Shown: piece after piece, positions 2,212 to 22,248 of the stretch
Layout of the letters: each line of letters begins with the position of its first letter
Position numbering within the stretch: the stretch's first letter is position 1
The notes under the pieces: generated by a model
Database searches by the model: none
What the model was told of the DNA's origin: nothing
The model's input: the letters and a program-made list of their open reading frames with translations, nothing else
Program-made: the position numbers and the translations under genes
Source: Betaproteobacteria bacterium
GTDB taxonomy: Bacteria; Pseudomonadota; Gammaproteobacteria; Burkholderiales; SG8-39
Length of the DNA stretch: 64,000 bases
Reading direction: 5' to 3'
Assembly: GCA_031391405.1 (NCBI GenBank)
Contig: JANMUI010000779.1
Coordinates: 2,127-66,126 of the forward strand

Positions 2212-2221
2212 AAGCCATTCT

Positions 2222-4039
2222 ATGACTGAGAGCACTACCATGAAGATGACACCTACGGTATCCACCGGAGCGGCGGCAGATGGGCAGCTTGTTGACCGGG
2301 AGGACTTGGTAACTCTCGCGAAGGCTACGGTCATGATGGTCGACGACGATCCGATCATGATCGATGCCGTGGAGGCCTTCCTCGGTGAGGCCGGATTTGA
2401 CGCGTTCATTTCCACGACCGATCCGGAGCAAGCGCTGGCAATGATTCGATCGAACAAGCCGGATGTGGTCTTGCTCGATCTGATGATGCCTATACTCTCC
2501 GGATTCGATATTTTGGAGCGCATGCGCGCGGACGCCGAGTTTCGGTACGTGCCGGTCATCGTATTGACATCGTCGAGCTTCTCGGAGACGAAGACGCGGG
2601 CGCTCGAATTGGGTGCGACGGATTATCTCGCGAAGCCCGTGGACCCAAGCGAGCTGATTCTGCGCCTACGCAATACACTCGCATTCAAGGCCTATCAGGA
2701 CCAGCTCGCCTACTACGATACGCTGACGGGATTGCCCAATCGGAAAATGTTTCTCGAGCGTCTAGATTCTGCGCTCAAGCGGGTCCATGGTTCAGGACGG
2801 TCGTGCGCATTGCTGAACTTCAATATCGACCGGTTTCGGCAGATCAACGATACCCTTGGCCATCGCACCGGCGACGAGCTGCTTCGCGCCGTGGCCCACC
2901 GACTCGAGGAGAGCTTGCGCGCTGGAGATGCCGTGGGCCGTCTTATCGAAGGCGAGTCCCGCGTAAGCATGTCGCGGGTCGGCGGAGACGAATTCTCCTG
3001 CCTGGTCGTTGAATTGAACCAAGCGCCGAACGCTGCAGCCATCGCCCGTCGAACGCTTGCCTTATTCACCGAGCCGTTCCTGATCAACGGTCACGAGCTG
3101 TTCGTGACGGGGAGCATCGGCATTGCGGTCTATCCCAACGACGGGGCAGCGAGCGATCTGTTGATGAAGAACGCCAACGCGGCGATGTCCAACGCGAAGC
3201 GGCAAGGTGGCAACCGATTTGTCTTCTACTCGAATGAAATGAATGCCCGTTCTCTGGAGCGGTTGACGCTCGAGAACCGGCTGCGCAATGCGCTCAGCCG
3301 TGGCGAGCTGATCCTCCACTACCAACCAAAGGTCGACGTCACGAGCGGGCGGATCGTTGGTGCAGAAGCACTCCTGCGTTGGCAGAGCCCGGAGCTTGGC
3401 ATGGTGTCGCCTGGAGTGTTCATTCCGCTCGCGGAAGAGACAGGCCTGATTCTGGCGATCGGGGAATGGGTTCTCTTTTCCGCTTGCCGGCAGAGCAAAG
3501 CACTTCAAGAAGCTGGACACGGGATTGTGCCGATTGCCGTCAATGTATCCAGCGTCCAGTTGCGCGGGAAAGAGTTGTTGGCTTCGATATCGACCGCTCT
3601 CGAGGAAACCCGCCTGGATCCCCGATCCCTGATCCTCGAGCTCACCGAGAGCATGTTGATGGACAACGCGAAAGGAGCAGTCGATGTCATGCGTGCGATC
3701 AAGGCGCTTGGCGTGCAGATCGCGCTCGATGATTTCGGCACAGGCTACTCGTCGCTCGCTTACCTGAAGCAGCTTCCGTTGGACGAGTTGAAGATCGATA
3801 AGTCCTTTATCGATACCGTGACGACCGATTCGCGCGACGCTGCCATCGTGTCGACAGTAGTCGCCTTGGCGCACGGCCTCGGTTTGAAAGCGACAGCGGA
3901 GGGCGTCGAAACCAAGGCTCAGCTTGCGATGCTCGGTCGCCTCAAATGTGACCAATACCAAGGATTCTTGTACAGCAAGGCAGTTCCGGCGGAACGCTTT
4001 GCCGAGATCGCCGCGCAGCAGCTCTGCACGACAGACTAG
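2222..4039 (+). CDS. Response regulator with GGDEF and EAL domains (REC-GGDEF-EAL)
   Basis: ATG at 2222, whereas the ORF opening at 2147 overlaps the upstream gene. REC (VMMVDDD, DVVLLDLMMP, AKP); GGDEF (RVGGDEFSCL); EAL-domain motifs EALLRW, ELTES, DDFGTGYSSL, KIDKSF, EGVET. Confidence 0.92.
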   Translation: MTESTTMKMTPTVSTGAAADGQLVDREDLVTLAKATVMMVDDDPIMIDAVEAFLGEAGFDAFISTTDPEQALAMIRSNKPDVVLLDLMMPILSGFDILERMRADAEFRYVPVIVLTSSSFSETKTRALELGATDYLAKPVDPSELILRLRNTLAFKAYQDQLAYYDTLTGLPNRKMFLERLDSALKRVHGSGRSCALLNFNIDRFRQINDTLGHRTGDELLRAVAHRLEESLRAGDAVGRLIEGESRVSMSRVGGDEFSCLVVELNQAPNAAAIARRTLALFTEPFLINGHELFVTGSIGIAVYPNDGAASDLLMKNANAAMSNAKRQGGNRFVFYSNEMNARSLERLTLENRLRNALSRGELILHYQPKVDVTSGRIVGAEALLRWQSPELGMVSPGVFIPLAEETGLILAIGEWVLFSACRQSKALQEAGHGIVPIAVNVSSVQLRGKELLASISTALEETRLDPRSLILELTESMLMDNAKGAVDVMRAIKALGVQIALDDFGTGYSSLAYLKQLPLDELKIDKSFIDTVTTDSRDAAIVSTVVALAHGLGLKATAEGVETKAQLAMLGRLKCDQYQGFLYSKAVPAERFAEIAAQQLCTTD

Positions 4040-4176
4040 CCTTGGAACCCGTTTCAAGATGTGGCTGTTTCGGTCACTCTGAAACGGCCCCTTCACGCTC
4101 AGCCGGCCCGTTTATCGACCCTAGAACCATGTTATCGACCAGCGGTGAGCTGACGGTGTTGCAGGCGAATCGGTAG

Positions 4177-6363
4177 CTATTTGGAAGTCACTTTGGGTCG
4201 AGGCGTCGTCGGCACGTCGCGCGACGACCACTTCTCCAATATCGTGGCCAAGGCTTTCTTGGTCATCGGTTTGCTCAGGAAATCATCCATGCCGGCACTG
4301 GTGCAGGCGTTTTGGTAGTCGGTGAATGCGTGTGCCGTCAAAGCGATGATTATCTGGCGATACCCGCTGCCTGCCTCATGCTTGCGTATCTCGCGCGTGG
4401 CCTCGAGCCCGTCCATCACCGGCATCTGACCATCCATGAGCACGAGGGCGAAGCGCCGCTGCCGGCATAGGGCAACCGCTTCTTCCCCGTTGCCGACTAC
4501 TGTGACACGCGCACCGAGCGATTCGAGCATCCCCGTGACGACCCGCGCATTCACGGTATTGTCCTCGGCGACCAACACGTCGATCGCGCCCTCTGCGCCC
4601 ACTGCGTCTTCCTGCCCGTCGACCGTAGCGGGAGCGGTGGGTCGCCTATCCGCAGTTGCATCGCTCTTAACCGCACCGCCTGACGTGGATTTCGCAGGCG
4701 CGGCGGTCGAACTGAGAACGCGCTGCGTCGAGACTATCGGGCGCTTGAGGGCATCTTTTCCAACCGGCGCTGCGTTGAACGATGCCTTCGTCCCGATCGG
4801 GAGCCGGACGGCAAACCAGAACGTCGAACCGCGGCCGAGTGCACTTTCCACGGCGAGCTCACCGTCGAAGAGGCTGACGATCCGGCTCGAGATGGCAAGC
4901 CCCAATCCCGTCCCGCTGTATGCACGGGTCATGCTGCCATCGGCTTGAGAGAACGCCTGAAAAATCTCGCGCTGCTTGTCCGCTGGGATGCCGATACCGG
5001 TATCGCGCACCGCGAACCGCAGCGCCGTCATCGAATCACTGCCGCCGGTGCGCGTGACCGAGATCGTAATCGAGCCGTGCTCGGTGAACTTAAGCGCGTT
5101 GCCGACAAGATTGATCAGCACCTGCCTGAGCCTGAGCGGATCATCTTTGACTACCGCGGGTACCTCGGGTCCCACTTGGGCGTTGAGCGCCAGACCGATC
5201 GCACGTGCGCCCTCGGTGAACATGTCGGTGATGCTATGAATAAGGTCTCGGACTGCGAACTCGACCGAGGCGAGCTCGATCCGGCCCGCTTCGATCTTCG
5301 AGAAATCCAGGATGTCATTGATGGCACCAAGCAGGGTCACGCCCGAGGAGTGGATCGTCTCGGCCAACTTGCGCTGGCGCTCCTCGAGGTCGGAGTCGAG
5401 CAGTAGCTCGGCCATGCCGAGCACGCCATTCATCGGGGTGCGGATCTCATGACTCATATTCGCCAGGAACTGCGACTTGAGCTTGTTCGCCGCTTCGGCT
5501 GTTTCCTTCGCGAGCTTGAGCTCCTGCGTGCGCTTCTCGACTTTGGTCTCGAGGTTCGATTGATAGGCAAGCACTTCGGTGCGCGATTCGCGCAGCCGCA
5601 CCGCCATTTGATTGAATGCCGCGGAGAGATCCTGCAACTCGTCGCGCGTCTTCAAGGTTACGATTGCGTCAAGATTGCCTTGGGCGATCGCGCGCGTCGC
5701 CTTGGCGAGCTGATCGATCGGCGCGACCAGCCGTCGCGTGAACCAGACGACGATCACGCTGCCGAGCAAGATCACGAGAAGCGCGCTGACCCCTACGACC
5801 GCGAGGAAGTTCAGGAACTGGTCGCGGATTCGCACCTCGCTTACCGCTACACGCACGTAGCCATCGATCACCAGGGGTGCTGCCATCGCCTCCCGCGCGG
5901 TGGGCGCAGCGTCGTTGGGGGCGCCCGCCTTGGGGCTTCTGACCGGCACGATAATTTCGTGATAGCGCACGCCGCTGGCAGTCACGCCGGCCATGGTCTG
6001 GTGCGAAACTGCACCGGTTGGCCAAGACTTTGGCGCTTGTTGGGACGAAAATCCCTCGCGGGGGCCCGACGCTGTTACTACTTGACCTACTGCGTTGTAA
6101 AGCGCTACGTAGATCACATCGGATTGCTGTGCCGCCGAGCGGACTATGAGGAGTGGCTCCGAGCGCGCCTCGCCCGACAGGTGCGGTCCGCTCAGTTGCG
6201 CCACCATGCGTGCGAGCTTGGTGGCCTGACCGATAAGTTGTGCTCGTCCTTCTTGGAGCTCCGTGTACACCGAGACGGTCCCAACGCCTAGTGCCGCCAG
6301 CAGCGACAGGGCGGCGAACAACAGTCGCAGCTTCAACTCTATGCGCATTGTGCGATTGGCCAT
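4177..6363 (-). CDS. HAMP-containing hybrid sensor histidine kinase with C-terminal REC
   Basis: ATG at 6363 ([11 protein letters not shown]) lies 4 nt after the stop of the upstream gene; extending to 6555 would overlap that gene. Architecture is TM, periplasmic region, TM, then HAMP ([18 protein letters not shown]). H-box [10 protein letters not shown]; HATPase DTGIGI and GTGLGL; REC ([19 protein letters not shown]). Confidence 0.9.
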
Positions 6364-6367
6364 GGCG

Positions 6368-7933
6368 TTACCCCGCACTCGATTCTGCGGCCGCGGTATC
6401 CGCGGCGGTCGCGTGCGTTTCTTGGTCCTGCTCGACCGATTCGCCAGCCCGGCAGACGCGATTGCGCCCCCCACGTTTGGCGCGGTACAGCGCCTGGTCA
6501 GCCGCCTCGATGGCCTGAACAACGCCGGTCGTGTCATCAAGCGTTGCCACACCAAGGCTGGCCGTAACGTGGAATCCAGGTATTTCCCGAATGGCGGGCC
6601 CGCACTGCTCGTCGATCGCTCGCCTTATCCGCTCGGCGACGATGGCTGCCTGCGCGAGGTCGGCGTTCGGCAAGCCGACGCAGAACTCTTCACCCCCATA
6701 GCGGCAGATCACGTCTTTGGTGCGCGATGCCGTCACGAGCTTCTTCGCGACTTCCTGAATTACACGATCACCTGTCGCGTGCCCGTACGTGTCATTGACC
6801 GATTTGAAGCGGTCGATGTCGAGGATCAAGAAGCTGAGCGGCGTCCCGCCTCGCCTCGACTCCACCAGCGCCGCCTCCATCTGCTCGAAGAATGCGCGCC
6901 GGTTGAGACATCCGGTGAGAGAGTCGCGGGTCGCCAGGCGCTCAAGCGCCTCGTTCTTCTGTGCGATCTCGTCGCGCGAAATGGCAAGCTCGACCAGCGT
7001 TTCGCGCAGCCGCTCGTTCGAGCGGTGCAGCTCGGTGACATCGTTCATGGTCACCATGCAACCTCGCACGGAGCCGCCGGGATCTCCAATCGGCGCGCAA
7101 TTGATGATGAGTTTCCTGCTGATACCGGAATCCGTTGCGATCTCGATCTCGTGCCCCATCGTCGGCACTTGTTCGATCATCGTTTGTACCCAAGGATGGC
7201 GGTGTGAATCGTCGGGCAGGTATTCGGCCAACCAGTGGAGCGTCGAGAGGCGCTTGCCGGTCAGATCGAGGCCGTCATTACCGTGCAAGGCGCGAAACGC
7301 ATTGTTCGCAAGTAGGATGCGCCCCCGCGAGTCGAGCAGTACCACCGCCTCGGCCATGACGTCGTAGGCAAGGCGCACGCGCTCCGGAATGACTGCGGAA
7401 GGATCCAGTCGAAGCAACGCGCGCCGCATGTAGAGCCAATAGACGAGTATGCCTCCCAGCGAAACGAACAAGATCGTGATCCAGAGCGGCTCGGTCAGCG
7501 CGCGGCGGAACGCGTTCCGCGGGTCCGGAACGTAGGTCATCTCGAACGTGCCCCAGCGATCCGTTCCGAACGTAAGGGGCACGACCACGTGGGTCAAGGT
7601 GGAGCGGTCATTGCGCGTTTCTGACCAGGCATCCTCATGGTCTCCAGCCTGGGCCACCAACGTCTGATCGGCGCGACGCACCGCAATGGAGCGCACTTCG
7701 TTGCTGCGCTGCCGCAGCGCCTCCAGGGATTGCTCCAGTGCGAGACGGTCGCCGAATTGCATCAGCGTGGCCACTTGCACGGCCATGCCCTCGCTCACCG
7801 ACTTCCGCACCTTCATCATCTGCGATGTGCGGTCGGGCAATACATTGAAGACGGTATCGGCGATGACGATCAGGAAGTTGGTCAGGAAGACCAATCCCAA
7901 GGTGATCTGCAGGGTGGGGCCGATGCGTCTCAC
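6368..7933 (-). CDS. Membrane-bound PAS-GGDEF diguanylate cyclase
   Basis: GTG start at 7933 overlaps the stop of the upstream small ORF (GTGA). Two TM segments flank a ~120-aa periplasmic region, followed by a PAS-like segment. GGEEF is at 6683..6697, with an RxxD I-site (RTKD) five residues upstream. Confidence 0.9.
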
Positions 7934-8301
7934 GCTCGACTCACGGGCCTGTGAATGTCCGCAGCGCGTTCATCGAGCACCATGGCGGCGGCCTGCTCCT
8001 CCAACTCGGCCTGATCGCCGTGCGAGGCATTCGGGATGCGCGCTGGGGGTGGCTCGTCCTCCTCTTCGCGCTCCACGATCGCCAGCAAGTCCACATGCCG
8101 CCAGATCGGCAGGCCCATCACCAGCAGCGAGGTCCAGCCGCTCGAGCGCACCAACCACAACAGCGCACCTGCGACCAGCACTGAGCTGGCCAACCATAGC
8201 GGGTCATTTGTCAATCCTTCGCGCTCGCTCGAATGATTGTGTCGCCAATGGACTCCGACGGTTTGCGCCACCAGGGGCCGCGGCCAGCGGATCGTTGCCA
8301 T
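7930..8301 (-). CDS. Small membrane protein with acidic C-terminal tail (hypothetical)
   Basis: ATG at 8301 overlaps the 3' end of the giant gene by 98 nt; an in-frame TTG at 8214 is an alternative start. Hydrophobic stretch LWLASSVLVAGALLWLV...WTSLLVMGLPIW is followed by EREEEDEPPP...AELEEQ. The stop overlaps the GTG start of the cyclase gene. I see no recognisable family. Confidence 0.5.
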   Translation of the reverse strand: MATIRWPRPLVAQTVGVHWRHNHSSEREGLTNDPLWLASSVLVAGALLWLVRSSGWTSLLVMGLPIWRHVDLLAIVEREEEDEPPPARIPNASHGDQAELEEQAAAMVLDERAADIHRPVSRA

Positions 8302-11251
8302 CTGTTGGGACCGGCGCGCCGATCAACGCGTCACCCGAGTCTCCGCTCGACGCACTGCTCACTGTCGGACCAACCGTTGTGGTTGGGCCGACTACGGCGG
8401 CCAAGGCCGTACTGCTCAGGCTCTCGGCAGTGCCCTGCGCATCGGTGTAACCCACGATCACCCGTATCTGATCGCCCACGTCGGTGGCGGTGAGCAAATA
8501 GATTGACGCAGTGGCCCCGCTCAGGTTGATCCAAGTCACGCCATCGGCGGAGCGCTGCCATTGGAAGCTGACGGCGCTCAGACCGTCAGCGTCGCCAATG
8601 GTGGAAGTGTCCGCGCTGAGCGATTGCGCTTCGGTGGCTGTGCCAATGAGGGCAACCGCACCGGTGGGCGCATCGTTGACGTTGGCGACCGCTGCGGTTT
8701 GGGCACTGGTGAGCGGGCCTTCGGGCGTACCCTGTCCATCGGTGTAGCGCACCTGTACCGAAATCTGCGTGCCGACATCGGCGTCTCCTAACGTGAAGGT
8801 GTTAGCCGTCGCACCCCCAATCGCGATCCCGTTCCTCAACCACTGGTAGCTGAAGACGCCTACGCCATCGACATCCGCGATGCCCGCGGAGGTAGCCGTC
8901 AAGATCTGGTCTTCGCTCACGGTTCCAGTAATCGTTGGCATCCCGGCAGGCGCATCATTGACCGCTGTCACATTGACGGTGAGCGTGTTGGGCGCGGCGT
9001 CGAACGCATTCGACTGATCGCGCACGCTGAAGGTGAAGCTCGCGTAGCCCGCGCCGGTGGCATTCGCGGCCGGCGTGAACACCAGATTGCCCGCGGCGAG
9101 CTGAGCAGTGGTGATCACGTCGCCCGCGTTCACTGCAACGCCTGACAACGTGAGTGAACCCGCGACCGGAACCGAATCGATACGCACCGCTAAGATGCTG
9201 TCGCCCGCGTCCACGTCGGTGAAGCCGAAGGTGGCCGAGGCGAAGGTGTAGGCGGTGTCTTCGTTCGTCGTGACGGTGGCGTTGGTGCCCGCGGGCGCAT
9301 CGTTCACCGCGGTCACATCCACCGTCAACGTGTTCGGCGCGGCGTCATACACACTCGACTGATCGCGCACGCTGAAGGTGAAGCTCGCGTAGCCCGCGCC
9401 GTTGGCATTGGCCGCGGGCGTGAAGACGAGGTTGCCGGCGGCGAGCTGCGCGGCCGTGACCACCTGCCCGGCCGAGACCGCCGCACCGGAGAGCGTGAGC
9501 GAACCCGCGCCCGGAACCGAGTCGATGCGCACCGCCGAGAGGCTGTCACCCGCATCCACGTCGGTGAAGCCGAAGGTGGCGGCAGAGAAGGTGTAGGCGG
9601 TGTCTTCGTTGGTCGTGACGGTGGCGTTGGTGCCGGCGGGCGCGTCGTTCACGGCGGTGCCAGTCATCGCCTTGCTGCCGGTCACGGCCGCCGCGACGCT
9701 GACGCTGGTGGCGATGGTGAAGTTGCCGTTGAAATTGGACGCTGGGTTGAACGTCACGCCGGCCAGCAGGGTGTTGACGTTGGCCAGGGCGCCGCTGGCG
9801 GTCCACACGCCGGTGCCGGCGACATATGTGGAGGTCACCGCACCGGAGGTGGCGGTACTCAGGCTGCCGGCGGCGGTGTTGGACAGGGTCAAGGTCGCCG
9901 TGACGCTGGCGCTGTCGACGTCGCTGATCACGATGTCGGTCAGGTTCAGCGCGGTGTCTTCGGTATAGGTTTGGGCCGCACTCAGATTGGTGGCGCTGGG
10001 CGCGGCGTTGGTAGACTCGATCAGGCGAAACGCCATGTCCTTCGAGCCATCGTCCGTGCCATCGCCGGGGTTGATCTTGGCGCCGGTCGTGTAGGTGCCC
10101 GAATCGTGTACGCCGACATACACCTTGCCACCGTCCGTGCTGCTTTCGATGCGAATGAAATAGTTCTGGTTGTCATTCAGCGTCGCGGTGCTGCTCAGGC
10201 TGATCGTTACCCACGCCTCGGTGGTTCCCAGACTCGAGCTCGCGATCGTTCCGCTGGCGATGATCGCGCCGTTGTAGGTCGAGCGCAACGACACGGTGAT
10301 GTTCTGCGCCGAGGTATCGCTGGCACCGTAGAGCACCAGGCCGATCTTGTCGACGGTGTAAGTCGCCGTCGGGCTGTCGTACCGAACCTTCATGATCTGC
10401 GGCTGACTCGACTTGACCTCGTACGCTTGGTCGCCCATGTTGCCAAACGTGGGCTCGTACGAGTGGATCGTGGTGTCGGCCAACAGGCCAAGCCACTCGT
10501 GTTGTGCCTCAGCGCTCACGGCCACGCCCGTCTCGATGCTTCCCTGCGAAATCTCCAGCTGCCAGTCACCGCCCAGCGACTCGTGCCCGGTCGCATCGAC
10601 ACTTGCCGCGACGTCCGCACCCGTCAGGCGCGCGAGGTGTTCCACGAATGCTTGCCCGGCCGTGCCCTGCGCCACGTCGCAACCATAGATCAGCAGGTCG
10701 GCATCGGCGCTCAGCGCCTCGCGCCAGCTCTGCAGCTCGGTGGCGCGGGCCTCCAGCGCACTCGAGTCGAGCGTCGTGTTTCCGAGTTGCAGCAGCCCGG
10801 GTCGGCCGTGCGAGACGATGTGGATCGCGGCAACATCCTTCTGGTCAGCGAGCGCTTCGTTGATCTGCGCGATCCCATCGCGACTCGCGTCGATGAGAAT
10901 GATCTCTATGGTGCGTTCGCTGCGGGCATTGGCGGTGATATCCGCGACGAGCTGTTCGGCGTTCGGTATGCGTGCATCGACGAACACGATCTCGCGGGAG
11001 CGCTCTTCCTGCAATGAGAAGACTGCGAGCGAGGCGTGCTGAGCATTGACGGTGCTCTCATCGATTTGACGCACCTCACCTTGGAGGGCAGCTTCCGGGG
11101 CAGGCGCGGCGACCGGATTGAGATCTCCCGAATACAGAATGCGCGGCTCGAGCTCCTCGATGGTGGCCGAGGGCGCCTCCTCAGCGTTGGGGCGCCCCAG
11201 GTTCTTCAGCCAGCGGAAAATGCCCATACCATTCTCTCCGCGTCGTGTCAT
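8204..11251 (-). CDS. Giant DUF4347-type N-domain / cadherin-like repeat surface protein (putative adhesin)
   Basis: ATG at 11251 overlaps the stop of the upstream adaptor (ATGA). An alternative ATG at 11227 has GGAGAG upstream. N-terminal LEPRILYSG motif at 11126..11152. DUF4347-like block (EIVFVDARIPN...IHIVSHGRPG...LLIYGCDVAQG...GGDWQLE). A beta-rich middle domain follows, then repeated VNDAP...FTDVD...GYASFTFSVRD modules and two FQW/YQW...GAT...DVG...YTD.QGT modules. No Sec-type signal peptide and no GGxGxD RTX repeats are evident. Confidence 0.85.
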   Translation of the reverse strand: MTRRGENGMGIFRWLKNLGRPNAEEAPSATIEELEPRILYSGDLNPVAAPAPEAALQGEVRQIDESTVNAQHASLAVFSLQEERSREIVFVDARIPNAEQLVADITANARSERTIEIILIDASRDGIAQINEALADQKDVAAIHIVSHGRPGLLQLGNTTLDSSALEARATELQSWREALSADADLLIYGCDVAQGTAGQAFVEHLARLTGADVAASVDATGHESLGGDWQLEISQGSIETGVAVSAEAQHEWLGLLADTTIHSYEPTFGNMGDQAYEVKSSQPQIMKVRYDSPTATYTVDKIGLVLYGASDTSAQNITVSLRSTYNGAIIASGTIASSSLGTTEAWVTISLSSTATLNDNQNYFIRIESSTDGGKVYVGVHDSGTYTTGAKINPGDGTDDGSKDMAFRLIESTNAAPSATNLSAAQTYTEDTALNLTDIVISDVDSASVTATLTLSNTAAGSLSTATSGAVTSTYVAGTGVWTASGALANVNTLLAGVTFNPASNFNGNFTIATSVSVAAAVTGSKAMTGTAVNDAPAGTNATVTTNEDTAYTFSAATFGFTDVDAGDSLSAVRIDSVPGAGSLTLSGAAVSAGQVVTAAQLAAGNLVFTPAANANGAGYASFTFSVRDQSSVYDAAPNTLTVDVTAVNDAPAGTNATVTTNEDTAYTFASATFGFTDVDAGDSILAVRIDSVPVAGSLTLSGVAVNAGDVITTAQLAAGNLVFTPAANATGAGYASFTFSVRDQSNAFDAAPNTLTVNVTAVNDAPAGMPTITGTVSEDQILTATSAGIADVDGVGVFSYQWLRNGIAIGGATANTFTLGDADVGTQISVQVRYTDGQGTPEGPLTSAQTAAVANVNDAPTGAVALIGTATEAQSLSADTSTIGDADGLSAVSFQWQRSADGVTWINLSGATASIYLLTATDVGDQIRVIVGYTDAQGTAESLSSTALAAVVGPTTTVGPTVSSASSGDSGDALIGAPVPTDGNDPLAAAPGGANRRSPLATQSFERARRIDK
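8969..9658 (-). repeat. Two near-identical tandem 345-bp (115-codon) coding repeats inside the giant gene
   Basis: TAVNDAPAGTNATVTTNEDTAYTF... recurs at protein residues 570, 685 and 800. The DNA of 8969..9313 and 9314..9658 aligns with only scattered substitutions. Confidence 0.85.
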
Positions 11252-12309
11252 TTCGCGGCGACGGGTCGCAGCGACGAATGCGCAGGGAGGGCGCCCGACG
11301 TGGCGCGAGCGCCTGATGTTGGGGCGGCTGTCTCGGGCAATTTCAGTCCCAGGTCGACCTTGCATCGCAGCCCGGCGGGCAAGGCGGCGTCGGGATTGGG
11401 CAGCTCGAGACGTACGCGAAACGTACTGCTCGCCGCATCGATGACGCGATCGACGGTCTTGACCGTGGCGGTGCGTTCTTGCCGGTCCAGCAACTCGGGG
11501 ACGACAGTCGCCTTCTGGCCCGCCTTCACCTGCCCGAACGCGGTCGCCGGCACGAGCACGTCGACGCGCAGCGGATTGATGCTGGCGATGCGCATCACCG
11601 GTTTGTCGTCGACGCGCTCTCCCACCGATGCGAAGCGATCCACCACCACACCGGAAATCGGCGCGCGGATGGTGCGCATGTTCAACTGCGCGACCGCGAG
11701 GTCGACTTCCTTTGTCGCCGCCGTCCGCTTCTCCCGGACCTGGTCCGTGCGCCCTTCCGCAACCTGCACCTCGGTGCGCTGTTTGTCCAGATAGGTCTGC
11801 GAGACGAAGCTCTTCTCGTACAACTCGTTGGCACGGCCGAGCTCGCGGTGCGCAAACGCCCGCGAGCTTTGCGCGGCAGCAAGCTCACCGGCCTGCGCGG
11901 CACGCTCACGGGCAAGGGCAAGCGATGCGCGTTCGACGTCGGCATGCAATTGCGCGACGACTTGGCCCTGCTTCACGATGTCCCCGCGTTCGGCCCAAAG
12001 CCGCTCGATCACCCCGACGAGCGCGAGCGCCACGCCCAATAAGGAGGGCGTCAATCCGCGACTGCGTAACATCCGCTGCACTCGCGCTACCGAATCCGAC
12101 CAAGACCGCGCGGACCCCTGGCTGAAACGGGTCCGCGCGTTCGCGAGCGATCGCGACACGGGCCGCGGCAACCGACGGGATTCAGCAGCCGAACAGGCGT
12201 CACCCATTAACCGCGCCAAACCGTGAAGCCGGCCGTGCGAGTCGTCGACTTCCCGCTCGGGATATGCGCTCCAGACGAGTCCGGGAGAAGGGAGTGTCCG
12301 TGCGCTCAT
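11248..12309 (-). CDS. HlyD-family periplasmic adaptor (membrane fusion protein-like)
   Basis: ATG at 12309 overlaps the stop of the upstream gene (ATGA). Arg-rich cytoplasmic N-terminus, one TM (LTPSLLGVALALVGVI), then GDIVKQGQVVAQL, a coiled coil, RTIRAPISGVVVDRFASVGERV and a beta-barrel segment. Confidence 0.8.
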   Translation of the reverse strand: MSARTLPSPGLVWSAYPEREVDDSHGRLHGLARLMGDACSAAESRRLPRPVSRSLANARTRFSQGSARSWSDSVARVQRMLRSRGLTPSLLGVALALVGVIERLWAERGDIVKQGQVVAQLHADVERASLALARERAAQAGELAAAQSSRAFAHRELGRANELYEKSFVSQTYLDKQRTEVQVAEGRTDQVREKRTAATKEVDLAVAQLNMRTIRAPISGVVVDRFASVGERVDDKPVMRIASINPLRVDVLVPATAFGQVKAGQKATVVPELLDRQERTATVKTVDRVIDAASSTFRVRLELPNPDAALPAGLRCKVDLGLKLPETAAPTSGARATSGALPAHSSLRPVAAK

Positions 12310-14468
12310 CGCTCGAAATGCCGCAAGAAGGTGCGTCGCGTGAGCAGCTGCAGCTGTTGGGCAAGCGTTGCTTCACCGTGACGAAAAGTTACGAGCACGC
12401 GCACGCCAATGGGCGCCGCCATGGCATGGGCCAACCGCAGATCGAATTGGAACCAGGCCTCGAGCGCGGTCTTCCCGCTCTGATCGCTGGAATCGGTGGC
12501 GATGCTGCCGCCGCCCGGCTCACCCATCGCCTCGCTCGGGAGCTCACGTGCCGCCTGTGGAATCTCTCGCTCGATGCGAGCGCTATGTGCGGCCCCGATC
12601 TCGTTTGCGAGACGGACATGGATCTCACCAGGCCGCTCGCGCACCAGCGCCACATCTTCGTTGCGCACAAGCACGCGCACGAGCGGGGCGTCCTGGACGA
12701 GGACGTGACCGAACACCTCACCTTGTTCGACGAATCGGCCGGGGGCATCCTGGGCGCGGTCCAGCGCAGCCGCCCCGCTGCGTTCCGCCCGCACGCTCAG
12801 CGCCTCGTTCTTTTGCTGGAGTCGCCGCTGCTCAGAACGCAACTGGTCGATCTTGTCAGGGAGCACTGCGACGCGCATCGGTTCTGTTTCGTATCGCACC
12901 GCGCGCTCGACGGCGTGCTGCTTGAGCGAGGCGCTGACGCGCTCGAGGTCGACCGGAAGCTGATCGTTCGCAAGTTGTGCAATCACCGCGCCCCCGGAAA
13001 CGGGTTCGCCATCGCGCGCCTCAAGTTTTTCGATGAACCCTTCCACGCCCGCGCGTACCGTTGCATCGTCGGGGAGCCAGACGATTCCCGGCGCGTAAGT
13101 CACTTGCGGCAGCGGTACGGCGAAGACCGCGCCGACGACGGCCGTCAAGAGGGCGAGACCGAGGGCGACGGCGCGCCCACGCTGACCGACCAGCTCGCGC
13201 GAATCGACCATATAGACGAGCGCCCGCAATACCGGCCATACGATCAGCAGAACGGCACCAATCGCTGCGACAGAGAGCGCTGTGGCGGCATTGAACTGCG
13301 CGATCACCAGCACGAAGAACGCGAACAGCAGGCACCGATAAACCCACGCGAGCGGCGCATACAGGATGAGCCAAGGGCGCTCGCCGTACTCGAGCGCCGG
13401 TGCGCCGATGCGTCGCACGCCGATGAGGTGCCGCTTCGCCAGATGACGCCAATAGGTGGTGCTGCGTGCCGCGAGATTGGGCAACTCGAAGAGGTCGCAC
13501 AGCACGAAGTAGCCATCGAATCGGAGCAAGGGATTGCCGTTGACCAGCAATGTGGAGACACCCGCTGTGAGCGCCACTGCGAAAGCGAGATCACGAAGCC
13601 ATCCGCCGTCGGCCGCGAGCCACACGACGAGCGCCACAGCGGCGATCACCAGCTCGACCATGATGCCGGCTGCGGCGACTGCCGCGCGCTCCCACTTTTC
13701 GGGGAATGCCGTGGACGCCGAAGCGTCCACATACGGCACCGGCGTCAGGAAGAGCAAGGTCACGCCCATTTCGCGTACATCCCCACCGAACGCTTTGACT
13801 GCGAACGCGTGGCCGAGCTCATGGAGGACCTTGATACAGGGATAGGCGATCCATAACGCGAGGAGCATGCCGGTCGTTGGCAGCTGAGCGGCCGCGAAAG
13901 CGGAGAGCTCGCGTGCGTTGATCATCCAGAGCAGGAGGCCAAGCAGCGCCGTGAGCGTGAACACCACGGCAGCGCCTCGGCTATACATCCAGCGTACATA
14001 GCCCACGGTGTGCGAAATGAACGTGTCCGGATCCCACAGCGGGACACGAAACGCGAGCGGATTGAGGGCGCTCTCCCCACGGCGGCGGCGGGACCGATCG
14101 CCGCGTTTGACGATCGCCGCGGCGTCCGGTGTAACGTCGGCCACGATGAGATTCGCCTCGAACGCCTGGCTGAGGATGCGAATGGCCTCACCTTGCGAAA
14201 TTGCGTGTTCGCCATCGATCTTGACGCGCGCGTTCCATACCTCGTCGACCGTCCGCTGCCCGTCGCAGGAGGCGACCAGACGGTATGCCAGCTGGTTGAA
14301 TCGATGGTGGCGTCCGGAAGCGGGATCGGAGAAGACGTACCACCGTGCGCCGCGAACGATCTGTCGGCTGACCTTGACGCCCGGGCGGACACGCGGACGT
14401 AACTGGGCGACCCGGTACCAGTCCGGAGAGTGGAGGGATGCACGCCTGTTCACGCGAGCGCTCTCCAC
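12306..14468 (-). CDS. Fusion protein: PqqD-like N-domain + M50 (site-2-type) zinc metalloprotease + C-terminal HlyD-like adaptor region
   Basis: GTG at 14468, or GTG at 14453 forming GTGA with the upstream stop. N-terminal segment is RWYVFSDPASGRHHRFNQLAYRLVASCDGQRTVDEVW. HELGH at 13809..13823, plus a second M50 motif GNPLLRFDGY, with multiple TM helices. The C-terminal 260 aa carry a lipoyl-like hairpin, a coiled coil and a barrel. Confidence 0.85.
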   Translation of the reverse strand: MESARVNRRASLHSPDWYRVAQLRPRVRPGVKVSRQIVRGARWYVFSDPASGRHHRFNQLAYRLVASCDGQRTVDEVWNARVKIDGEHAISQGEAIRILSQAFEANLIVADVTPDAAAIVKRGDRSRRRRGESALNPLAFRVPLWDPDTFISHTVGYVRWMYSRGAAVVFTLTALLGLLLWMINARELSAFAAAQLPTTGMLLALWIAYPCIKVLHELGHAFAVKAFGGDVREMGVTLLFLTPVPYVDASASTAFPEKWERAAVAAAGIMVELVIAAVALVVWLAADGGWLRDLAFAVALTAGVSTLLVNGNPLLRFDGYFVLCDLFELPNLAARSTTYWRHLAKRHLIGVRRIGAPALEYGERPWLILYAPLAWVYRCLLFAFFVLVIAQFNAATALSVAAIGAVLLIVWPVLRALVYMVDSRELVGQRGRAVALGLALLTAVVGAVFAVPLPQVTYAPGIVWLPDDATVRAGVEGFIEKLEARDGEPVSGGAVIAQLANDQLPVDLERVSASLKQHAVERAVRYETEPMRVAVLPDKIDQLRSEQRRLQQKNEALSVRAERSGAAALDRAQDAPGRFVEQGEVFGHVLVQDAPLVRVLVRNEDVALVRERPGEIHVRLANEIGAAHSARIEREIPQAARELPSEAMGEPGGGSIATDSSDQSGKTALEAWFQFDLRLAHAMAAPIGVRVLVTFRHGEATLAQQLQLLTRRTFLRHFER

Positions 14469-15949
14469 AGCATGCGGCGCAGCCAGTTGGCGGCACGATG
14501 TGTCCAGATCCCGATGAGCCGCCGCTCCTCGATATCGATCTTCGCCACGCCCTGCAAGCCCGGTCGCAATCCACCAACCTGATCTGCCTCATTGGGTGCG
14601 ACGTGTGCCTCCGCTTCGAAGAAATTCCAGCCGTCGCGCGCCATTGCGATGGGGGCGACGCGGGTGAGTTGCAGGTCGAATGGCCTGGTCGTTTCGGCGG
14701 CGAACAGCACGCGCGCGCGCTGGCCGACGCGAACGGCGCCGACATCCTGCTCATCGACCTCGAGGATCACGCGATATTCATTCGCCGGGGCGACCACCAT
14801 CAGGATTTGCCCGCGCTTGACGGGCGCCCCGATCGATTGGAGCAGATCGCCCTTGATCACGACGCCATCGATGGGCGCCTGGAGGCGAGTGCGTGCGAGG
14901 CGTTGCAGGACCAACCCGAGCTCCGTGCGTGCCTGATCGTGCTTCGCCTTGGCGATCACGATGCTGGCGGCATCGTCCTTGCTCAGCGCTTCGCGATATT
15001 GCTTGTCCAGCTGTGCCATCTCCGCTTCCCACTTGTCCCGCTCGAGCGCAAGGTCACGGTCCTCGAGTGCGGCCAATGCCTGACCGATTTTTACGGCCTG
15101 CCCCGGCCGTACGTGTACGTCGCGGAGGAATCCGTCCACGGGCGCCGCGACGACACGCTCGATTGCACCCTCGATGTGCGCCGGTGCGGTGATGCGAAAG
15201 GTGACCGGCCACATTGCCGCGCCAATCGCCAATGCCAGCATCGCGAGAAAAATAAACTTGCCGGGCGATGATGCGACCCCGTGCAGCCGCTGACCGCGCT
15301 TAGCTAGCAGATCCTCCCAGCGGCGCGCCAACGAATCATCGACCCGATGCTTCAGTGCGAGGACCGGTCCGACGAACAGTGCGACGTCCTGTGCCAGTCG
15401 AACCGCTTCGGCGTTGAATCCCTTTTGACCCTCGAGCAGCACCGCGCCCAGCAGTCGATCGCGATCCGCGATCGGCACGGTGCAGATCGCTGCGCGCGCG
15501 CTGCTCTCCGAGAGGCGCGCATGAGCGAGGGTTACCTTTGGCGAGGACCCCTGCGGCGTTGGATGGACGATGGTCGTCCGCTGATCGAGTGACTCCTCCA
15601 TCGCCGCACCGATGATGCGAACAAGGCTCTGCCGCTCGCGGAAATCCCCGGTATTGGAGATTGCCGCGATCGCGATTCGACCCTTGCGAATAAAGCCAAT
15701 GCTGACGCGATCGCATCCGAGCATCGAGCACAACTCGGTCGTGACGGCGCTTGCCGCCACTTGGAATCGGGCGTGCGAGAGGGCTCGCGCCTGAAGCGCG
15801 AGGACCGTGCCAATCCGCGCCATGCGCTGCTGCGTGCGCGCGGCGGGCGGTGGCTCCCCGGGTGGGCCGGACGCGTGCGGCCGCGGTGAAACGGGCGGCG
15901 CGACGCGCTTGGTCTGGTCGTCGGTGGACGTACTCTCTAGGGCGAGCAA
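14450..15949 (-). CDS. GAF-domain protein fused to HlyD-family adaptor
   Basis: The ORF opens with TTG at 15949; ATG at 15823 (MARIGTVLAL) is an alternative start. GAF-like N-domain (LGCDRVSIGFIRKGR...LLGAVLLEG). TM (FIFLAMLALAIGAAMW), then PVDGFLRDVHVRPGQAVKIGQALAAL, a coiled coil and RLQAPIDGVVIKGDL. Confidence 0.8.
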   Translation of the reverse strand: MLALESTSTDDQTKRVAPPVSPRPHASGPPGEPPPAARTQQRMARIGTVLALQARALSHARFQVAASAVTTELCSMLGCDRVSIGFIRKGRIAIAAISNTGDFRERQSLVRIIGAAMEESLDQRTTIVHPTPQGSSPKVTLAHARLSESSARAAICTVPIADRDRLLGAVLLEGQKGFNAEAVRLAQDVALFVGPVLALKHRVDDSLARRWEDLLAKRGQRLHGVASSPGKFIFLAMLALAIGAAMWPVTFRITAPAHIEGAIERVVAAPVDGFLRDVHVRPGQAVKIGQALAALEDRDLALERDKWEAEMAQLDKQYREALSKDDAASIVIAKAKHDQARTELGLVLQRLARTRLQAPIDGVVIKGDLLQSIGAPVKRGQILMVVAPANEYRVILEVDEQDVGAVRVGQRARVLFAAETTRPFDLQLTRVAPIAMARDGWNFFEAEAHVAPNEADQVGGLRPGLQGVAKIDIEERRLIGIWTHRAANWLRRMLWRALA

Positions 15950-16117
15950 TTTGGGCGTGCGATCTTCCCCGCGATGGCGGGACTCGCCCGTTGGCCTCCC
16001 TATTCGACCCGGGCCGTTGGGCAGGCGGTGTCGCGACTAAGGGTAATCGGGGTGCCCAATTCGGAGCGCGCGCGGTCGATCGCATCCGTCCGTGATCGAA
16101 CTCACGCTCGCACGGCG

Positions 16118-16190
16118 GGCTTCGACAAGCCTGTCCGGAGCCCTTCGACAGGCTCAGGACACGCTTGTCGAAAGGCTCAGCCCGAACGGA
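16118..16190. repeat. REP-like intergenic palindromic element
   Basis: The element reads cttcgacaagcctgtccggagcccttcgacaggctcaggacacgcttgtcgaaaggctcagcccgaacgg. It contains the inverted repeat agcctgtc/gacaggct and repeated ttcgaca(a/g)gc units. It lies in the 349-bp gap upstream of the GAF-HlyD gene. Confidence 0.5.
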
Positions 16191-16298
16191 CTCTCACGGT
16201 CCGATGGGTTGGCTGAGGCAGGTTACTGATCTGGAAGTCGCTGGCCCGCCTCGATTCGTGTCCGATCATCCGGCTGCTGGCGCGGCGCTAGGTCCGGG

Positions 16299-22237: not shown

Positions 22238-22248
22238 GCATTGAATCC

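Follow-up and report, generated by a model that had tools for sequence, protein, structure and literature searches.

An adhesin-type LEPR-XLL protein with a candidate non-Sec export leader beside a probably crippled M50/SecA-like/HlyD module

Introduction

How a large adhesin-like protein with neither a Sec signal peptide nor RTX repeats could be exported is the question raised by a locus from a Betaproteobacteria bacterium, analysed here within a window of 64,000 nucleotides. The earlier note on this DNA, made from its letters alone, proposed that the polar, LEPR-bearing N-terminus of this protein (the cargo) is a leader recognised by the PqqD-like domain of a neighbouring M50 protease fusion, one of a trio of adaptor genes, by a logic resembling that of LapG and LapA.

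The neighbouring gene families are known from a genomics-only study of 2015, which described a 'secondary SecA_DEAD' locus of GAF-HlyD, Peptidase_M50-HlyD, SecA_DEAD and HlyD genes, sometimes with OEP/TolC, and which neither named a substrate nor noted an RRE domain (Kamneva, Poudel & Ward, PLoS One, PMC4452313). The LEPR-XLL family (NF012209) comprises very large repetitive proteins, including the 36,806- and 20,647-amino acid symbiosis proteins of Chlorobium chlorochromatii (bioRxiv 10.64898/2026.03.19.712371). The literature open to search yielded no link between LEPR-XLL and the M50/SecA-like module; here the SecA_DEAD-type module is tied to LEPR-XLL proteins.

On balance we favour, with some reserve, the view that the cargo is an adhesin-type LEPR-XLL protein that is secreted and has a dedicated non-Sec N-terminal export leader of ~45 residues, the machine for which is crippled in this window. 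The features on which this proposal is built are collected in Table 1.

Table 1. Features of the cargo locus, in window coordinates.
Feature	Position	Strand	Basis
HAMP hybrid histidine kinase	4177-6555	-	Pfam/NCBIfam
PAS-GGDEF diguanylate cyclase, directly downstream of cargo	6368-7933	-	Pfam/NCBIfam
Cargo: LEPR-XLL / DUF4347 / cadherin-like repeat protein, 1015 aa	8204..11251	-	ORF, Pfam and NCBIfam matches
Passenger: four cadherin/Ig-like repeats each opening with VNDAP, residues ~534-935	8447..9652	-	Pfam/NCBIfam and VNDAP positions
DUF4347 domain, residues 88-257, predicted clan-CD (caspase/CPD-like) cysteine protease fold	10481..10990	-	Pfam, E = 1.4e-58
Candidate N-terminal leader, residues 1-43, basic non-hydrophobic stretch then IEELEPRILYSGD	11123..11251	-	NF012209 and motif HMM
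Chimeric ORF: first ~99 codons of SecA-like ATPase in frame with third adaptor from residue ~44	11248..12309	-	tblastn, blastp, Pfam
Deletion junction, 1852 bp absent	12010..12019	-	blastn colinearity with L082 and junction sequences
RRE(PqqD-like)-M50 metalloprotease-HlyD fusion, 720 aa	12306..14468	-	Pfam Peptidase_M50 and HlyD
GAF-domain membrane-fusion protein (GAF-HlyD)	14450..15949	-	Pfam GAF, Biotin_lipoyl_2, HlyD_D23, HlyD_3

The Cargo Protein and its Candidate Leader

The open frame around the cargo gene spans 8204-11365 on the minus strand, and the product read from the ATG at 11251 begins exactly as had been quoted. The overlap of this ATG with the stop of the upstream ORF (ATGA) is also as described; however, while frame and overlap stand, translation probably starts at Met9 (ATG 11227), because a GGAGAG Shine-Dalgarno sequence lies 8 nt 5' of this codon and an orthologue at 84% identity begins at the same position. 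The reported lack of a hydrophobic signal peptide was borne out, in that the highest 15-residue Kyte-Doolittle mean over residues 1-80 is 0.73 and therefore no signal-peptide-like hydrophobic core is present, and a search of the entire protein for GGxGxD found none and no RTX repeats, again as claimed. The succession of LEPRILYSG (11126-11152), DUF4347 and VNDAP repeats was likewise recovered. For a member of this family the cargo is short: adjacent relatives are mostly >2000 amino acids and one of them reaches 12,737.

The LEPR motif is more than a chance resemblance, as the NF012209 profile matches cargo residues 31-51 with 22.9 bits (cut-off 17) and a motif HMM built from homologues gives the cargo ORF 35.0 bits, with the runner-up among 922 window ORFs at 2.4. 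The consensus drawn from 88 homologues reads RRPxxEELEPRILYSAD; the median position of the core Glu is residue 19, and the segment before the core is net positive in 96%. Judged from these sequences, the leader pattern is a basic stretch and then (I/V)EELEPR(I/L)L(Y/F)SAD. The AlphaFold model of the leader has a pLDDT of about 50, that is, disordered. Thus the cargo shares with the NF012209 family a ~24-residue motif at the extreme N-terminus behind a basic stretch, although it has just 1015 residues compared to the giants of that family. The motif is present in 100 of 120 database homologues, opens nearly all DUF4347 ORFs of metagenomic loci (there sometimes in a divergent form), and is also found on adjacent giant proteins that have no DUF4347.

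Behind the leader, the DUF4347 domain contains a His148 (10808-10810) and a Cys191 (10679-10681) that are invariant in 27 homologues, the latter being the sole cysteine of the cargo (Cys content 0.1%). Its AlphaFold model (pLDDT above 90) returns in Foldseek, as top match, 9qpe_G (Tce1, a DUF4347 protein), followed by caspases, legumain and MALT1, and the predicted fold is thus that of a caspase/CPD-like cysteine protease. Tce1 (PA0256) has been described as a putative cysteine protease, and the cargo domain shares the predicted fold and keeps the His/Cys pair of Tce1 and of the MARTX/TcdB cysteine protease domains (PMC13323088). Unlike in those proteins, the domain sits behind a candidate export leader, at the N-terminal end of a large adhesin-like protein.

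The passenger carries VNDAP at residues 534, 649, 764 and 858, with Pfam Cadherin_4, Cadherin_5 and Big_9 matching across about 534-760 and Ig_SibA and tandem-95 also matching, and ends in a Ser/Gly/Pro-rich tail. When the cargo is compared with a relative at 84% identity, the passengers are unrelated beyond residue ~217. Between close relatives, passengers differ completely while leader and DUF4347 are conserved, a pattern that marks the N-terminus as the likely functional export handle.

The Neighbouring Module

A survey of loci with the M50 fusion found 80 that are species-representative, 68 of them informative for cargo. The conserved gene order is GAF-HlyD, RRE-M50-HlyD, a truncated SecA-like ATPase and a third HlyD adaptor; the GAF-HlyD gene is upstream of the M50 fusion in 77/80 loci and the SecA-like gene (~665 amino acids; SecA_DEAD/SecA_PP_bind/P-loop_SecA) follows it in 75/80, so that the 'trio' of adaptors is in its conserved form a set with a fourth gene. 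The families and their order are those of the 2015 locus, of which the GAF-HlyD and M50-HlyD of the window are clear members. Alignment of the SecA-like protein to SecA is confined to SecA residues ~45-607, which leaves NBD1-PPXD-NBD2; the scaffold, wing and two-helix finger are missing. In intact modules the third adaptor bears a signal peptide. The module is often joined by a TolC-type outer-membrane protein, whose gene closes it in Methylosinus and Thalassospira plasmids, and sometimes by a small DUF3467 protein. Natural variants without the SecA-like gene also occur (Thalassospira pCSC3H3, L033, L147, L152 and L154).

By domain matches and hydropathy, GAF-HlyD comprises a cytoplasmic GAF domain, a single hydrophobic segment (~224-253) and a periplasmic HlyD-type adaptor, and the M50 fusion has its hydrophobic segments within residues ~162 to ~458, with the periplasmic adaptor domain behind them. 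The HExxH of the M50 fusion (H216-H220, 13809-13823) and the Asp of its NPLLRFDG motif (D318) are invariant among homologues. Its N-terminal RRE (residues ~11-110, 14139-14438) is supported by a Pfam PqqD match in 7 of 20 homologues, while the window's own protein has no such match at E <= 0.1, and PGAP names the homologues 'PqqD family peptide modification chaperone'. The AlphaFold model of residues 11-110 (pLDDT above 90) finds as best PDB matches TbiB1 and a lasso B1 protein, each leader-bound, with TM about 0.62-0.66 on target but weak Foldseek E-values of about 0.04. This domain thus models as a RiPP leader-recognition fold, and the PqqD-like domain that the earlier note gave to the fusion is supported, alongside an intact HExxH...D metalloprotease site.

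If the leader belongs to the module, the two should be found together, and this comparison, named in advance, was positive in both directions. Large adjacent ORFs with the LEPR motif at the N-terminus were found in 30 of the 68 informative module loci (called at >= 8.5 bits, where the best of 13,251 reversed decoys scored 7.5), 27 of them directly behind the module and on its strand; in a further 19 the adjacent ORF exceeds 1800 amino acids and has its N-terminus outside the fetched stretch, and 18 have no adjacent cargo. Four plasmid loci have the layout of those 19, with the giant upstream, and all four giants are motif-tipped (ETFEPRVLLSAD, DTLEPRVLLNAD, EPIEPRILLSAD and EQLEPRLLLAAD), one being named 'LEPR-XLL domain-containing protein' by PGAP. 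Conversely, module genes lie near 34 of 49 metagenomic DUF4347 loci, each counted with at least 3 kb upstream, and about 30% have no adjacent module. The pairing spans Alpha-, Beta-, Gamma- and Deltaproteobacteria and Nitrospira-type loci, and by these counts the two-way co-occurrence of motif and module is far beyond chance. Association thus supports the leader idea: the LEPR N-terminus behaves like a dedicated targeting leader tied to the M50/HlyD genes, a link drawn entirely from gene neighbourhood. Given the unpaired modules and DUF4347 loci, the pairing may often act in trans or be non-obligatory.

A Deletion in this Copy

The ORF upstream of the cargo (11248-12309), previously taken for the third adaptor gene, is a signal-less deletion chimera in which an ATPase stub (about 12013-12309) is joined to the adaptor (11248 to about 12018). 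Matches of SecA-like proteins by tblastn are confined to 12001-12318 in the window. Blastp of the fusion finds SecA-like residues 2-98 and MFP residues 43-295 of L082, a syntenic relative at 84% identity with all four genes intact, and Pfam HlyD_D23/HlyD_3 and TIGR01730 cover chimera residues 95-323. Compared to the 2015 locus, then, L082 is complete and the window copy keeps a 99-codon SecA_DEAD stub. The missing 1852 bp correspond to L082 12445-14296, the breakpoint lies inside a 9-bp near-repeat, GTCGG(G/A)GTG, and the deleted N-terminal part of the MFP, a signal peptide, reads MKRTVSMLIGFVACSHAWSA. Read from this alignment, the event is a microhomology deletion by which the module lost its ATPase and the third adaptor its signal peptide, and the same junction is present in an independent contig (L081, 99.86% identity).

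Because both parts were removed, the cargo gene has most likely been left next to an exporter in decay, unless another copy of the module elsewhere in the genome serves it. The existence of SecA-less variants means that loss of the ATPase alone is no proof of lost function, but the sequence of this copy suggests that the neighbouring machine is probably non-functional. Between the window and L081 there are 5 nonsynonymous and 1 synonymous changes in the two intact module genes, and the GAF-HlyD gene of L081 carries a 2-bp frameshift; decay of the module is thus possible, on a signal of 10 differences between two assemblies, some of which could be assembly errors.

Proposed Mechanism and Alternatives

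We propose that the cytoplasmic RRE of the M50 fusion would capture the LEPR leader, and that the SecA-like motor would feed the unfolded chain, N-terminus first, into an inner-membrane conduit built of M50 and adaptor transmembrane segments, from which it would enter a tunnel of three kinds of adaptor docked on TolC. The M50 site may remove or trim the leader, as its RiPP-peptidase relatives do, and the caspase/CPD-like DUF4347 domain behind the leader may act in cis to process the passenger or set it free. The RRE is the predicted reader of the leader in this scheme, though the SecA-like preprotein-binding domain or another component could take that part, and leader cleavage by M50 is inferred from homology.

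The RRE is the sole domain of the module known elsewhere to bind leader peptides, but the SecA-like ATPase could read the leader instead, through its preprotein-binding domain or a family-specific N-terminal extension, leaving RRE-M50 to quality control, clearing of jammed substrates or separate small-peptide maturation. This we regard as unlikely, although the protein is present in 75/80 loci, still contains the preprotein cross-linking domain (Pfam SecA_PP_bind, with E as low as 7e-28) and has a parallel in truncated SecA domains independently tied to giant proteins in Omnitrophota (bioRxiv 10.1101/2023.11.21.568195). SecA-less modules still adjoin LEPR proteins, e.g., in Thalassospira and L152/L154, and so something else must read the leader there; nor was a conserved neighbouring gene for a small precursor peptide seen. 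It seems more doubtful still that the cargo leaves by conventional type I export (ABC transporter, HlyD and TolC) with an unrecognised C-terminal signal, the neighbours being an unrelated efflux or peptide-maturation system and LEPR a structural or anchoring element. Type I substrates without RTX repeats exist, cadherin-like repeats with an acidic, Thr/Ser/Ala-rich composition are the build of type I adhesins, and such a system may lie elsewhere in the genome, beyond these 64 kb. However, GGxGxD repeats are absent, a Pfam scan of the ten large ORFs of the window and the tblastn searches turned up neither an ABC transporter nor TolC, and the two-way co-occurrence and the conserved N-termini of otherwise completely varying proteins both argue against it.

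A quite conceivable, though not our preferred, alternative is that nothing is exported in this genome and that the locus, cargo included, is a decaying remnant with surviving ORFs. The deletion of ATPase and adaptor signal peptide, the frameshift in the sister assembly, the excess of nonsynonymous changes and a cargo much shorter than most relatives all agree with this, whereas the cargo, M50 fusion and GAF-HlyD ORFs are intact in the window, as are the catalytic and motif residues of cargo and M50 fusion, SecA-less modules occur naturally and the differences counted are very few. Decay and the export explanation do not compete, as decay would describe only how this one copy stands today. We give almost no credence to the cargo being an Hcp-loaded type VI effector like Tce1/PA0256 of Pseudomonas aeruginosa, even though among solved structures the DUF4347 model comes nearest to Tce1 in an Hcp3 ring (9qpe_G; PMC13323088). 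Tce1, at 310 amino acids, fits the Hcp ring, whereas the cargo has 1015 and its relatives thousands; furthermore, a LEPR leader is not reported on Tce1-type proteins, the conserved neighbours are M50/SecA-like/HlyD genes, and no type VI genes were present among the window ORFs scanned.

Comparison with Known Systems

The export system proposed here has partial counterparts. Colicin V export by CvaA/CvaB/TolC and the peptidase-containing ABC transporters are leader-dependent type I systems for bacteriocins, and share with the module an N-terminal leader, a protease within the inner-membrane component and a route through HlyD adaptor and TolC. They differ in that the leader here is LEPR-XLL and not double-glycine, the protease an M50 metalloprotease with RRE and not a C39 cysteine peptidase, the motor SecA-like and not ABC, the adaptors of three kinds and not one, and the substrates thousands of residues long and not peptides. 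To the RiPP leader peptidases the M50 fusion is similar over RRE and M50 (residues 25-410, covered by NCBIfam daptide_HExxH at E = 3e-45), but it scores below the cut-offs of both families (daptide NF041824, 154.9 against 300; YydH/LiaK NF058609, 36.6 against 225). It also has a C-terminal periplasmic HlyD domain and, presumably, a large protein as substrate, and no small precursor peptide or modifying enzymes were found near it.

The accessory Sec system (SecA2/SecY2) of Gram-positive bacteria exports giant serine-rich adhesins and likewise sets a dedicated SecA paralogue beside very large adhesins with an unusual N-terminal targeting region. Here, by contrast, there are no SecY2/Asp proteins, the envelope is diderm, with HlyD adaptors and TolC as partners, and the SecA-like protein, which has no C-terminal third, falls below all SecA2 cut-offs. 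LapA of Pseudomonas fluorescens is exported by an ABC-type type I system via a C-terminal signal, with LapG as a separate periplasmic cysteine protease and LapD as a specific receptor. A repeat-rich adhesin, an N-terminal control point, an implicated protease and c-di-GMP enzymes next door are common to both, but here the M50 fusion and the DUF4347 within the cargo are the candidate proteases, and the LapG fold differs. The LapG/LapA analogy of the earlier note gained no direct support, as profile matches and the ORF scan revealed no LapA-type export, LapG or LapD in the window; the closest LapG-like element is the DUF4347 of the cargo itself. As for the enzymes next door, GGDEF or HK genes are found in only about 10-15% of related loci and the linkage is not conserved; a regulatory role of the downstream cyclase and kinase (4177..7933) is possible.

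Gene layout and the four-gene module

Four tightly packed minus-strand open reading frames (ORFs) span 15949 to 8204 of the window, which is chromosomal (it carries dnaG, rpoD, dnaE and bipA), and the last of them encodes the LEPR-XLL protein that we refer to as the cargo (see table). A promoter and terminator scan of 7800-16400 gave nothing exceeding shuffled expectation.

Coordinates of the genes around the cargo in the window and of DUF3467 genes in related loci
Feature	Locus	Position	Strand	Description
GAF-HlyD gene	window	14450-15949	-	GAF domain, one hydrophobic segment, HlyD-type adaptor
M50 fusion	window	12306-14468	-	720 aa: small N-terminal domain, Peptidase_M50 membrane domain, HlyD-type adaptor
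Third-adaptor ORF	window	11248-12309	-	residues 95-323 are an RND/HlyD adaptor; TIGR01730, 134 bits
Cargo	window	8204-11251	-	LEPR-XLL / DUF4347 / cadherin-like protein
PAS hybrid kinase with Hpt domain	window	34-2211	+	
REC-GGDEF-EAL protein	window	2147-4039	+	
HAMP hybrid kinase	window	4177-6555	-	
PAS-GGDEF cyclase	window	6368-7933	-	
DUF3467 gene	L083	17726-18067		
DUF3467 gene	L084	17738-18058		
DUF3467 gene	L168	17681-17977		

The three genes ahead of the cargo had been read in the earlier note as a trio; in relatives they belong to a module of four genes, and the window copy is one gene short. Homologues of the M50 fusion number in the thousands, and scanning a single genome for each species gave more than 585 module loci, 80 of which were kept (L001-L080). 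The adjacency of the GAF-HlyD and M50-HlyD genes, which is found in the window, is kept in the same order in 77 of the 80 loci, and in 75 the M50 fusion is separated from the third adaptor by a gene of ~665 aa; the five loci without it are four cut contigs and L033, which is truly SecA-less. The ~665-aa gene has SecA_DEAD, SecA_PP_bind and P-loop_SecA domains. In relatives the encoded SecA-like proteins reach 369-563, where the cut-offs are 725-1100, and fall under every SecA/SecA2 cut-off; they align to residues ~45-607 only of solved SecA structures, so that both nucleotide-binding domains are present along with the preprotein-binding domain, and the scaffold, wing and C-terminal parts are absent. 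TolC genes close some of the modules. This GAF-HlyD / M50-HlyD / SecA_DEAD / HlyD module was first described from genomes in 2015 by authors who proposed a type-I-like secretion machine and left its substrate unnamed (Kamneva et al., 2015; PMC4452313).

Co-occurrence of the LEPR-XLL motif and the module

For the motif we used a 20-column HMM built from the N-termini of homologues, with a threshold of at least 8.5 bits (the best reversed-sequence decoy reached 7.5). The cargo ORF scores 35.0 bits, and the runner-up among the 922 ORFs of the window 2.4. Across the 80 module loci, 30 of 13,251 six-frame ORFs reach the threshold, all of them large; 27 lie on the module strand just after the module and three are upstream, two of these being divergent.

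The idea that motif and module co-occur, which the earlier note had raised, is borne out in both directions. Starting from the module, and excluding 12 loci whose flanks were too short, the motif is present in 30 of the 68 informative loci; in a further 19 an adjacent ORF of more than 1800 aa runs off the fetched stretch, its N-terminus lying outside, while one has a giant ORF without the motif and 18 have nothing adjacent. Starting from DUF4347, through which 80 metagenomic loci were found, module genes occur in 34 of the 49 whose upstream sequence extends for 3 kb or more, usually in the order GAF-HlyD, M50, SecA-like, adaptor, cargo. If a genome holds about one module, chance would place it no more than 10 kb from any particular gene in well under 1% of cases. 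Nearly all of the DUF4347 ORFs have the motif or a variant of it (LEDRILFS, LEERRLFSGG, LESRWMMSAD), the few sampled ORFs without it being mostly truncated gene calls, and 100 of 120 database homologues carry the motif. The pairing is not absolute, with ~30% of loci unpaired in each direction; such loci could act in trans.

The N-termini of the giants were read in four annotated plasmids whose giant gene precedes the module. Motifs are present in the 12,737-aa protein of a Pseudosulfitobacter plasmid (ETFEPRVLLSAD), the 8,847-aa protein of a Methylosinus plasmid (DTLEPRVLLNAD) and the 4,033-aa protein of the Thalassospira plasmid (EPIEPRILLSAD), which PGAP names 'LEPR-XLL domain-containing protein'; for the ~8,100-aa giant of the Alisedimentitalea plasmid, EQLEPRLLLAAD is encoded in frame, shortly before a start that was mis-called. 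Because at least three of these four giants have no DUF4347 next to the motif, it is the motif, not DUF4347, that travels with the module. At this Alisedimentitalea scapharcae locus (L169 726-860; NZ_CP123586.1 near 183224) the LEPR-type motif, VVEQLEPRLLLAAD, follows a basic stretch upstream of the annotated Met, and the start of the giant, annotated as a 'calcium-binding protein', appears to have been called too far downstream.

The cargo protein

The earlier description of the cargo stands: the protein begins MTRRGENGMGIFRWLKNLGRPNAEEAPSATIEELEPRILYSGD, LEPRILYSG is coded at 11126-11152, the ATG overlaps the stop of the upstream gene as ATGA, no hydrophobic stretch is found in the first 80 residues, the 1015 aa contain no GGxGxD and hence no RTX repeats, and VNDAP repeats lie at residues 534, 649, 764 and 858. 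Judged from the sequence around the start, Met9 (11227) is more likely to be the true start, because a ribosome-binding site, GGAGAG, precedes it and the closest orthologue starts at this Met. The NCBIfam model NF012209 matches residues 31-51 with 22.9 bits (curated cut-off 17). Among 88 database homologues starting with Met the leader consensus is RRPxxEELEPRILYSAD; the Glu and Arg of the core are invariant, the core lies at a median residue of 19, and the segment before it is net positive in 96%.

Pfam finds DUF4347 (PF14252) at residues 88-257 (E = 1.4e-58; 197.7 bits vs a gathering score of 24.6, with the profile covered in full, 1-164), plus cadherin/Ig-like repeats; residues ~258-533 (window 9700-10480), previously called a beta-rich domain, have no Pfam or NCBIfam match. 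Within DUF4347, all of 27 sequences compared retain H148 (HIVSHG) and C191 (LLIYGC), each of which follows a hydrophobic strand, an arrangement that is the signature of clan-CD peptidases; Cys191 is the sole cysteine of the cargo. The AlphaFold model of the domain has pLDDT >90 over ~90-250, and with Foldseek the first-ranking structure is 9qpe_G (Tce1/PA0256 of Pseudomonas aeruginosa, a DUF4347 protein), followed by caspase-3, caspase-8, legumain, CED-3 and MALT1; probabilities, Tce1 included, are ~1.0 and E = 1e-5 to 1e-3. A sequence search of PDB chains with DUF4347 returned 9qpe_G alone, as a marginal match (E = 1.7). Tce1 has been described as a putative cysteine protease resembling the protease domains of TcdB and MARTX, and the toxicity of Tce2 needs its Cys (2026; PMC13323088). 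With its Pfam match and the caspase-type fold of the model, DUF4347 is a putative clan-CD-like cysteine protease.

The cargo, with four cadherin-like repeats, is small beside its module-adjacent relatives, which are mostly >2000 aa and reach 12,737 aa. Compared with its counterpart in L082, the intact syntenic relative (GCA_046154555.1), it has residues 1-217 in common at 75% identity and none beyond (window 8204-10600 vs L082 15740-18400). Unrelated passengers behind a conserved head indicate cassette-like passenger replacement, and the leader and DUF4347 together appear to behave as a conserved cassette ahead of interchangeable passengers.

The M50 fusion and its RRE domain

The metalloprotease site of the M50 fusion is intact, since H216, E217, H220 and Asp318 (NPLLRFDG) do not vary across 20 homologues (47-84% identity). 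Residues 25-410 match the daptide leader-peptidase model (NF041824) over its whole length (E = 3e-45), with a score of 154.9 vs a cut-off of 300, and the YydH/LiaK epipeptide peptidase model (NF058609) more weakly, with 36.6 vs 225. By sequence, the M50 fusion is homologous to the RiPP leader peptidases and not a member of the family.

Homologues of the fusion are named 'PqqD family peptide modification chaperone' by PGAP, and Pfam PqqD is found in 7 of the 20; the window protein has no Pfam PqqD match at E <= 0.1. The AlphaFold model of residues 1-140 has pLDDT >90 for 11-110 and consists of a three-stranded sheet (strands 32-38, 41-47 and 54-57) and three helices. Its best Foldseek matches are the lasso-peptide B1 proteins TbiB1 (5v1v_A, 5v1u) and 6jx3_B, all of them leader-bound structures, with TM 0.62-0.66 on the target and E ~0.04, and the RRE-containing enzymes TglI and ThcOx come next. 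On this predicted structure we regard an RRE fold in the M50 fusion as established.

A deletion in the window copy of the module

The supposed third adaptor gene of the window is an in-frame chimera, in which SecA-like residues 2-98 are joined to adaptor residues 43-295. When the SecA-like proteins of close relatives were used in tblastn, the window matched at 12001-12318 only, which corresponds to the first ~100 codons of the third-adaptor ORF. L082, whose M50 fusion is 84% identical to that of the window and which has the flanking genes UbiD, TctC, DUF429 and HAD in common with it, contains a full SecA-like gene. The DNA of the two is colinear to window position 12010 and again from 12019, skipping 1852 bp of L082 (12445-14296), and the junction lies within a 9-bp near-repeat, GTCGGGGTG/GTCGGAGTG. 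The first ~43 residues of the adaptor, including its N-terminus MKRTVSMLIGFVACSHAWSA, a signal peptide, are lost while the adaptor domains remain. The window therefore contains neither a SecA_DEAD ATPase gene nor a third adaptor with its own signal peptide. At the junction, a moderately hydrophobic stretch, LTPSLLGVALALVGVI, is formed at chimera residues ~86-101 (window 11986-12040); it is too short for a membrane anchor and is the sole feature that could bring the orphaned adaptor to the membrane.

The deletion is probably real and no assembly artefact, because its junction recurs in L081 (SRR20217208), a contig assembled independently from a different data set and 99.86% identical along 7.8 kb, unless both assemblies share one sample. 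Ten positions distinguish L081 from the window. Around 3020-3030 of L081 (window ~14720) 2 bp (GC) are missing from the GAF-HlyD gene, a frameshift that cuts the called product to 377 aa and reflects either an error of assembly or continuing decay of the disabled module. Between window and L081, five of the six changes in the two intact module genes are nonsynonymous and one is synonymous; the numbers are small and point towards relaxed constraint on the module genes.

With the motor gone and the third adaptor deprived of its signal peptide, we lean towards the view that the exporter beside the cargo is inactive; we do not hold it more firmly because SecA-less modules elsewhere adjoin LEPR proteins and because the view is taken from the 64-kb window. 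SecA-less modules occur naturally at L168 (Thalassospira marina pCSC3H3, 5522-24487), L033, L147, L152 and L154; they still adjoin LEPR proteins, and in Thalassospira TolC as well, so that their motor is either given in trans or dispensable in some lineages. The window locus is best taken as a recently disabled copy, and should not serve as a model of the intact system.

Proposed export pathway

We propose that LEPR-XLL is the export signal of a distinct and as yet unnamed diderm pathway for very large surface proteins, composed of an RRE, a SecA-like motor, an M50-HlyD gate, three adaptors and TolC, a proposal for and against which we would weigh the chances equally. The cytoplasmic RRE of the M50 fusion would capture the LEPR leader, and the SecA-like ATPase would then drive the unfolded chain, N-terminus first, across the inner membrane, through a passage made by the transmembrane segments of the M50 and adaptor proteins, from which the three adaptors would form a periplasmic tunnel to TolC. 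The M50 protease may trim the leader, as its RiPP relatives do, and DUF4347 may cut in cis so that the passenger is released or matured. If this is true, the pathway would combine the logic of Sec, of type I secretion and of RiPP maturation, and the window would be a natural motor-less knockout.

The nearest working analogy is with bacteriocin exporters that depend on a leader, colicin V CvaAB-TolC among them, which likewise combine an N-terminal leader, a built-in protease, an HlyD adaptor and TolC; the proposed system differs from them in leader, protease, motor, number of adaptors and substrate size. The dedicated SecA paralogue also recalls the accessory Sec system of Gram-positive bacteria, which serves giant adhesins; no SecY-like neighbour was found in the annotated plasmid loci. 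Similarly truncated SecA domains have been reported inside giant Omnitrophota proteins, with a suggested role in self-export (bioRxiv 10.1101/2023.11.21.568195).

Other routes for the cargo were considered. That it is an RTX or classical type I substrate is unlikely, given the missing GGxGxD nonapeptides and the content of the 64-kb window, where there is no ABC exporter among the ten large ORFs scanned and no tblastn match to TolC. For control of the LapA type, to which the earlier note had likened the system, no LapG-like ORF was found and the LapD model gives 54 bits vs a cut-off of 1020; the genes downstream of the cargo are a PAS-GGDEF gene and a hybrid kinase. DUF4347, present in Tce1, might also be taken as a marker of type VI secretion, a reading rejected on cargo size and gene context. 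Among exporters, then, our preferred reading is of an N-terminal-leader, adaptor/TolC-type system, and whether it deserves the name of a separate secretion pathway we put at an even chance.

Four pieces of this picture were already known one by one: NCBIfam lists the motif, the module was described in 2015, SecA-like domains within giant proteins followed in 2023, and a protease fold for DUF4347 in 2026. We found no text linking LEPR-XLL to the module in the searchable literature, which leaves most subscription journals outside, and earlier work is possible. Some of the largest predicted bacterial proteins have the LEPR-XLL motif, among them symbiosis proteins of 20,000-37,000 aa in Chlorobium chlorochromatii, and LEPRxLL giants have been stated to lack a known transport signal (bioRxiv 10.64898/2026.03.19.712371). 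The SecA-like/M50/HlyD module, for its part, has had no substrate assigned to it since its description in 2015. The pairing gives motif and module each a testable partner, and yields a candidate receptor domain, motor and processing protease to go with the leader consensus. Cultivable strains with intact plasmid-borne loci exist, among them Pseudosulfitobacter sp. DSM 107133 (pDSM107133_a) and Methylosinus sp. C49 (pMSC49a). If the pathway is confirmed, it would represent an export route made from parts of three known systems, and its leader could be transferred to other very large proteins to have them secreted.

Neighbouring genes

Directly downstream of the cargo the window has a dense c-di-GMP/two-component cluster (34-7933), which may regulate the cargo adhesin. 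A link between the module and c-di-GMP genes is not conserved, since no more than ~10-15% of related loci have GGDEF or kinase genes.

Between the giant LEPR gene and GAF-HlyD, many loci of alpha- and deltaproteobacteria have a conserved gene for a small protein of ~100-115 aa with DUF3467; the gene is present in 21 of the 80 loci L001-L080 and absent from the window, and the protein could be a dedicated chaperone. Of the same 80 loci, 12 have a SapC-family gene beside either the module or the giant gene, and one is also found at 1058-1855 of the Alisedimentitalea plasmid locus L169. In Chlorobium chlorochromatii, sapC and tolC flank the LEPRxLL giants (bioRxiv 10.64898/2026.03.19.712371).
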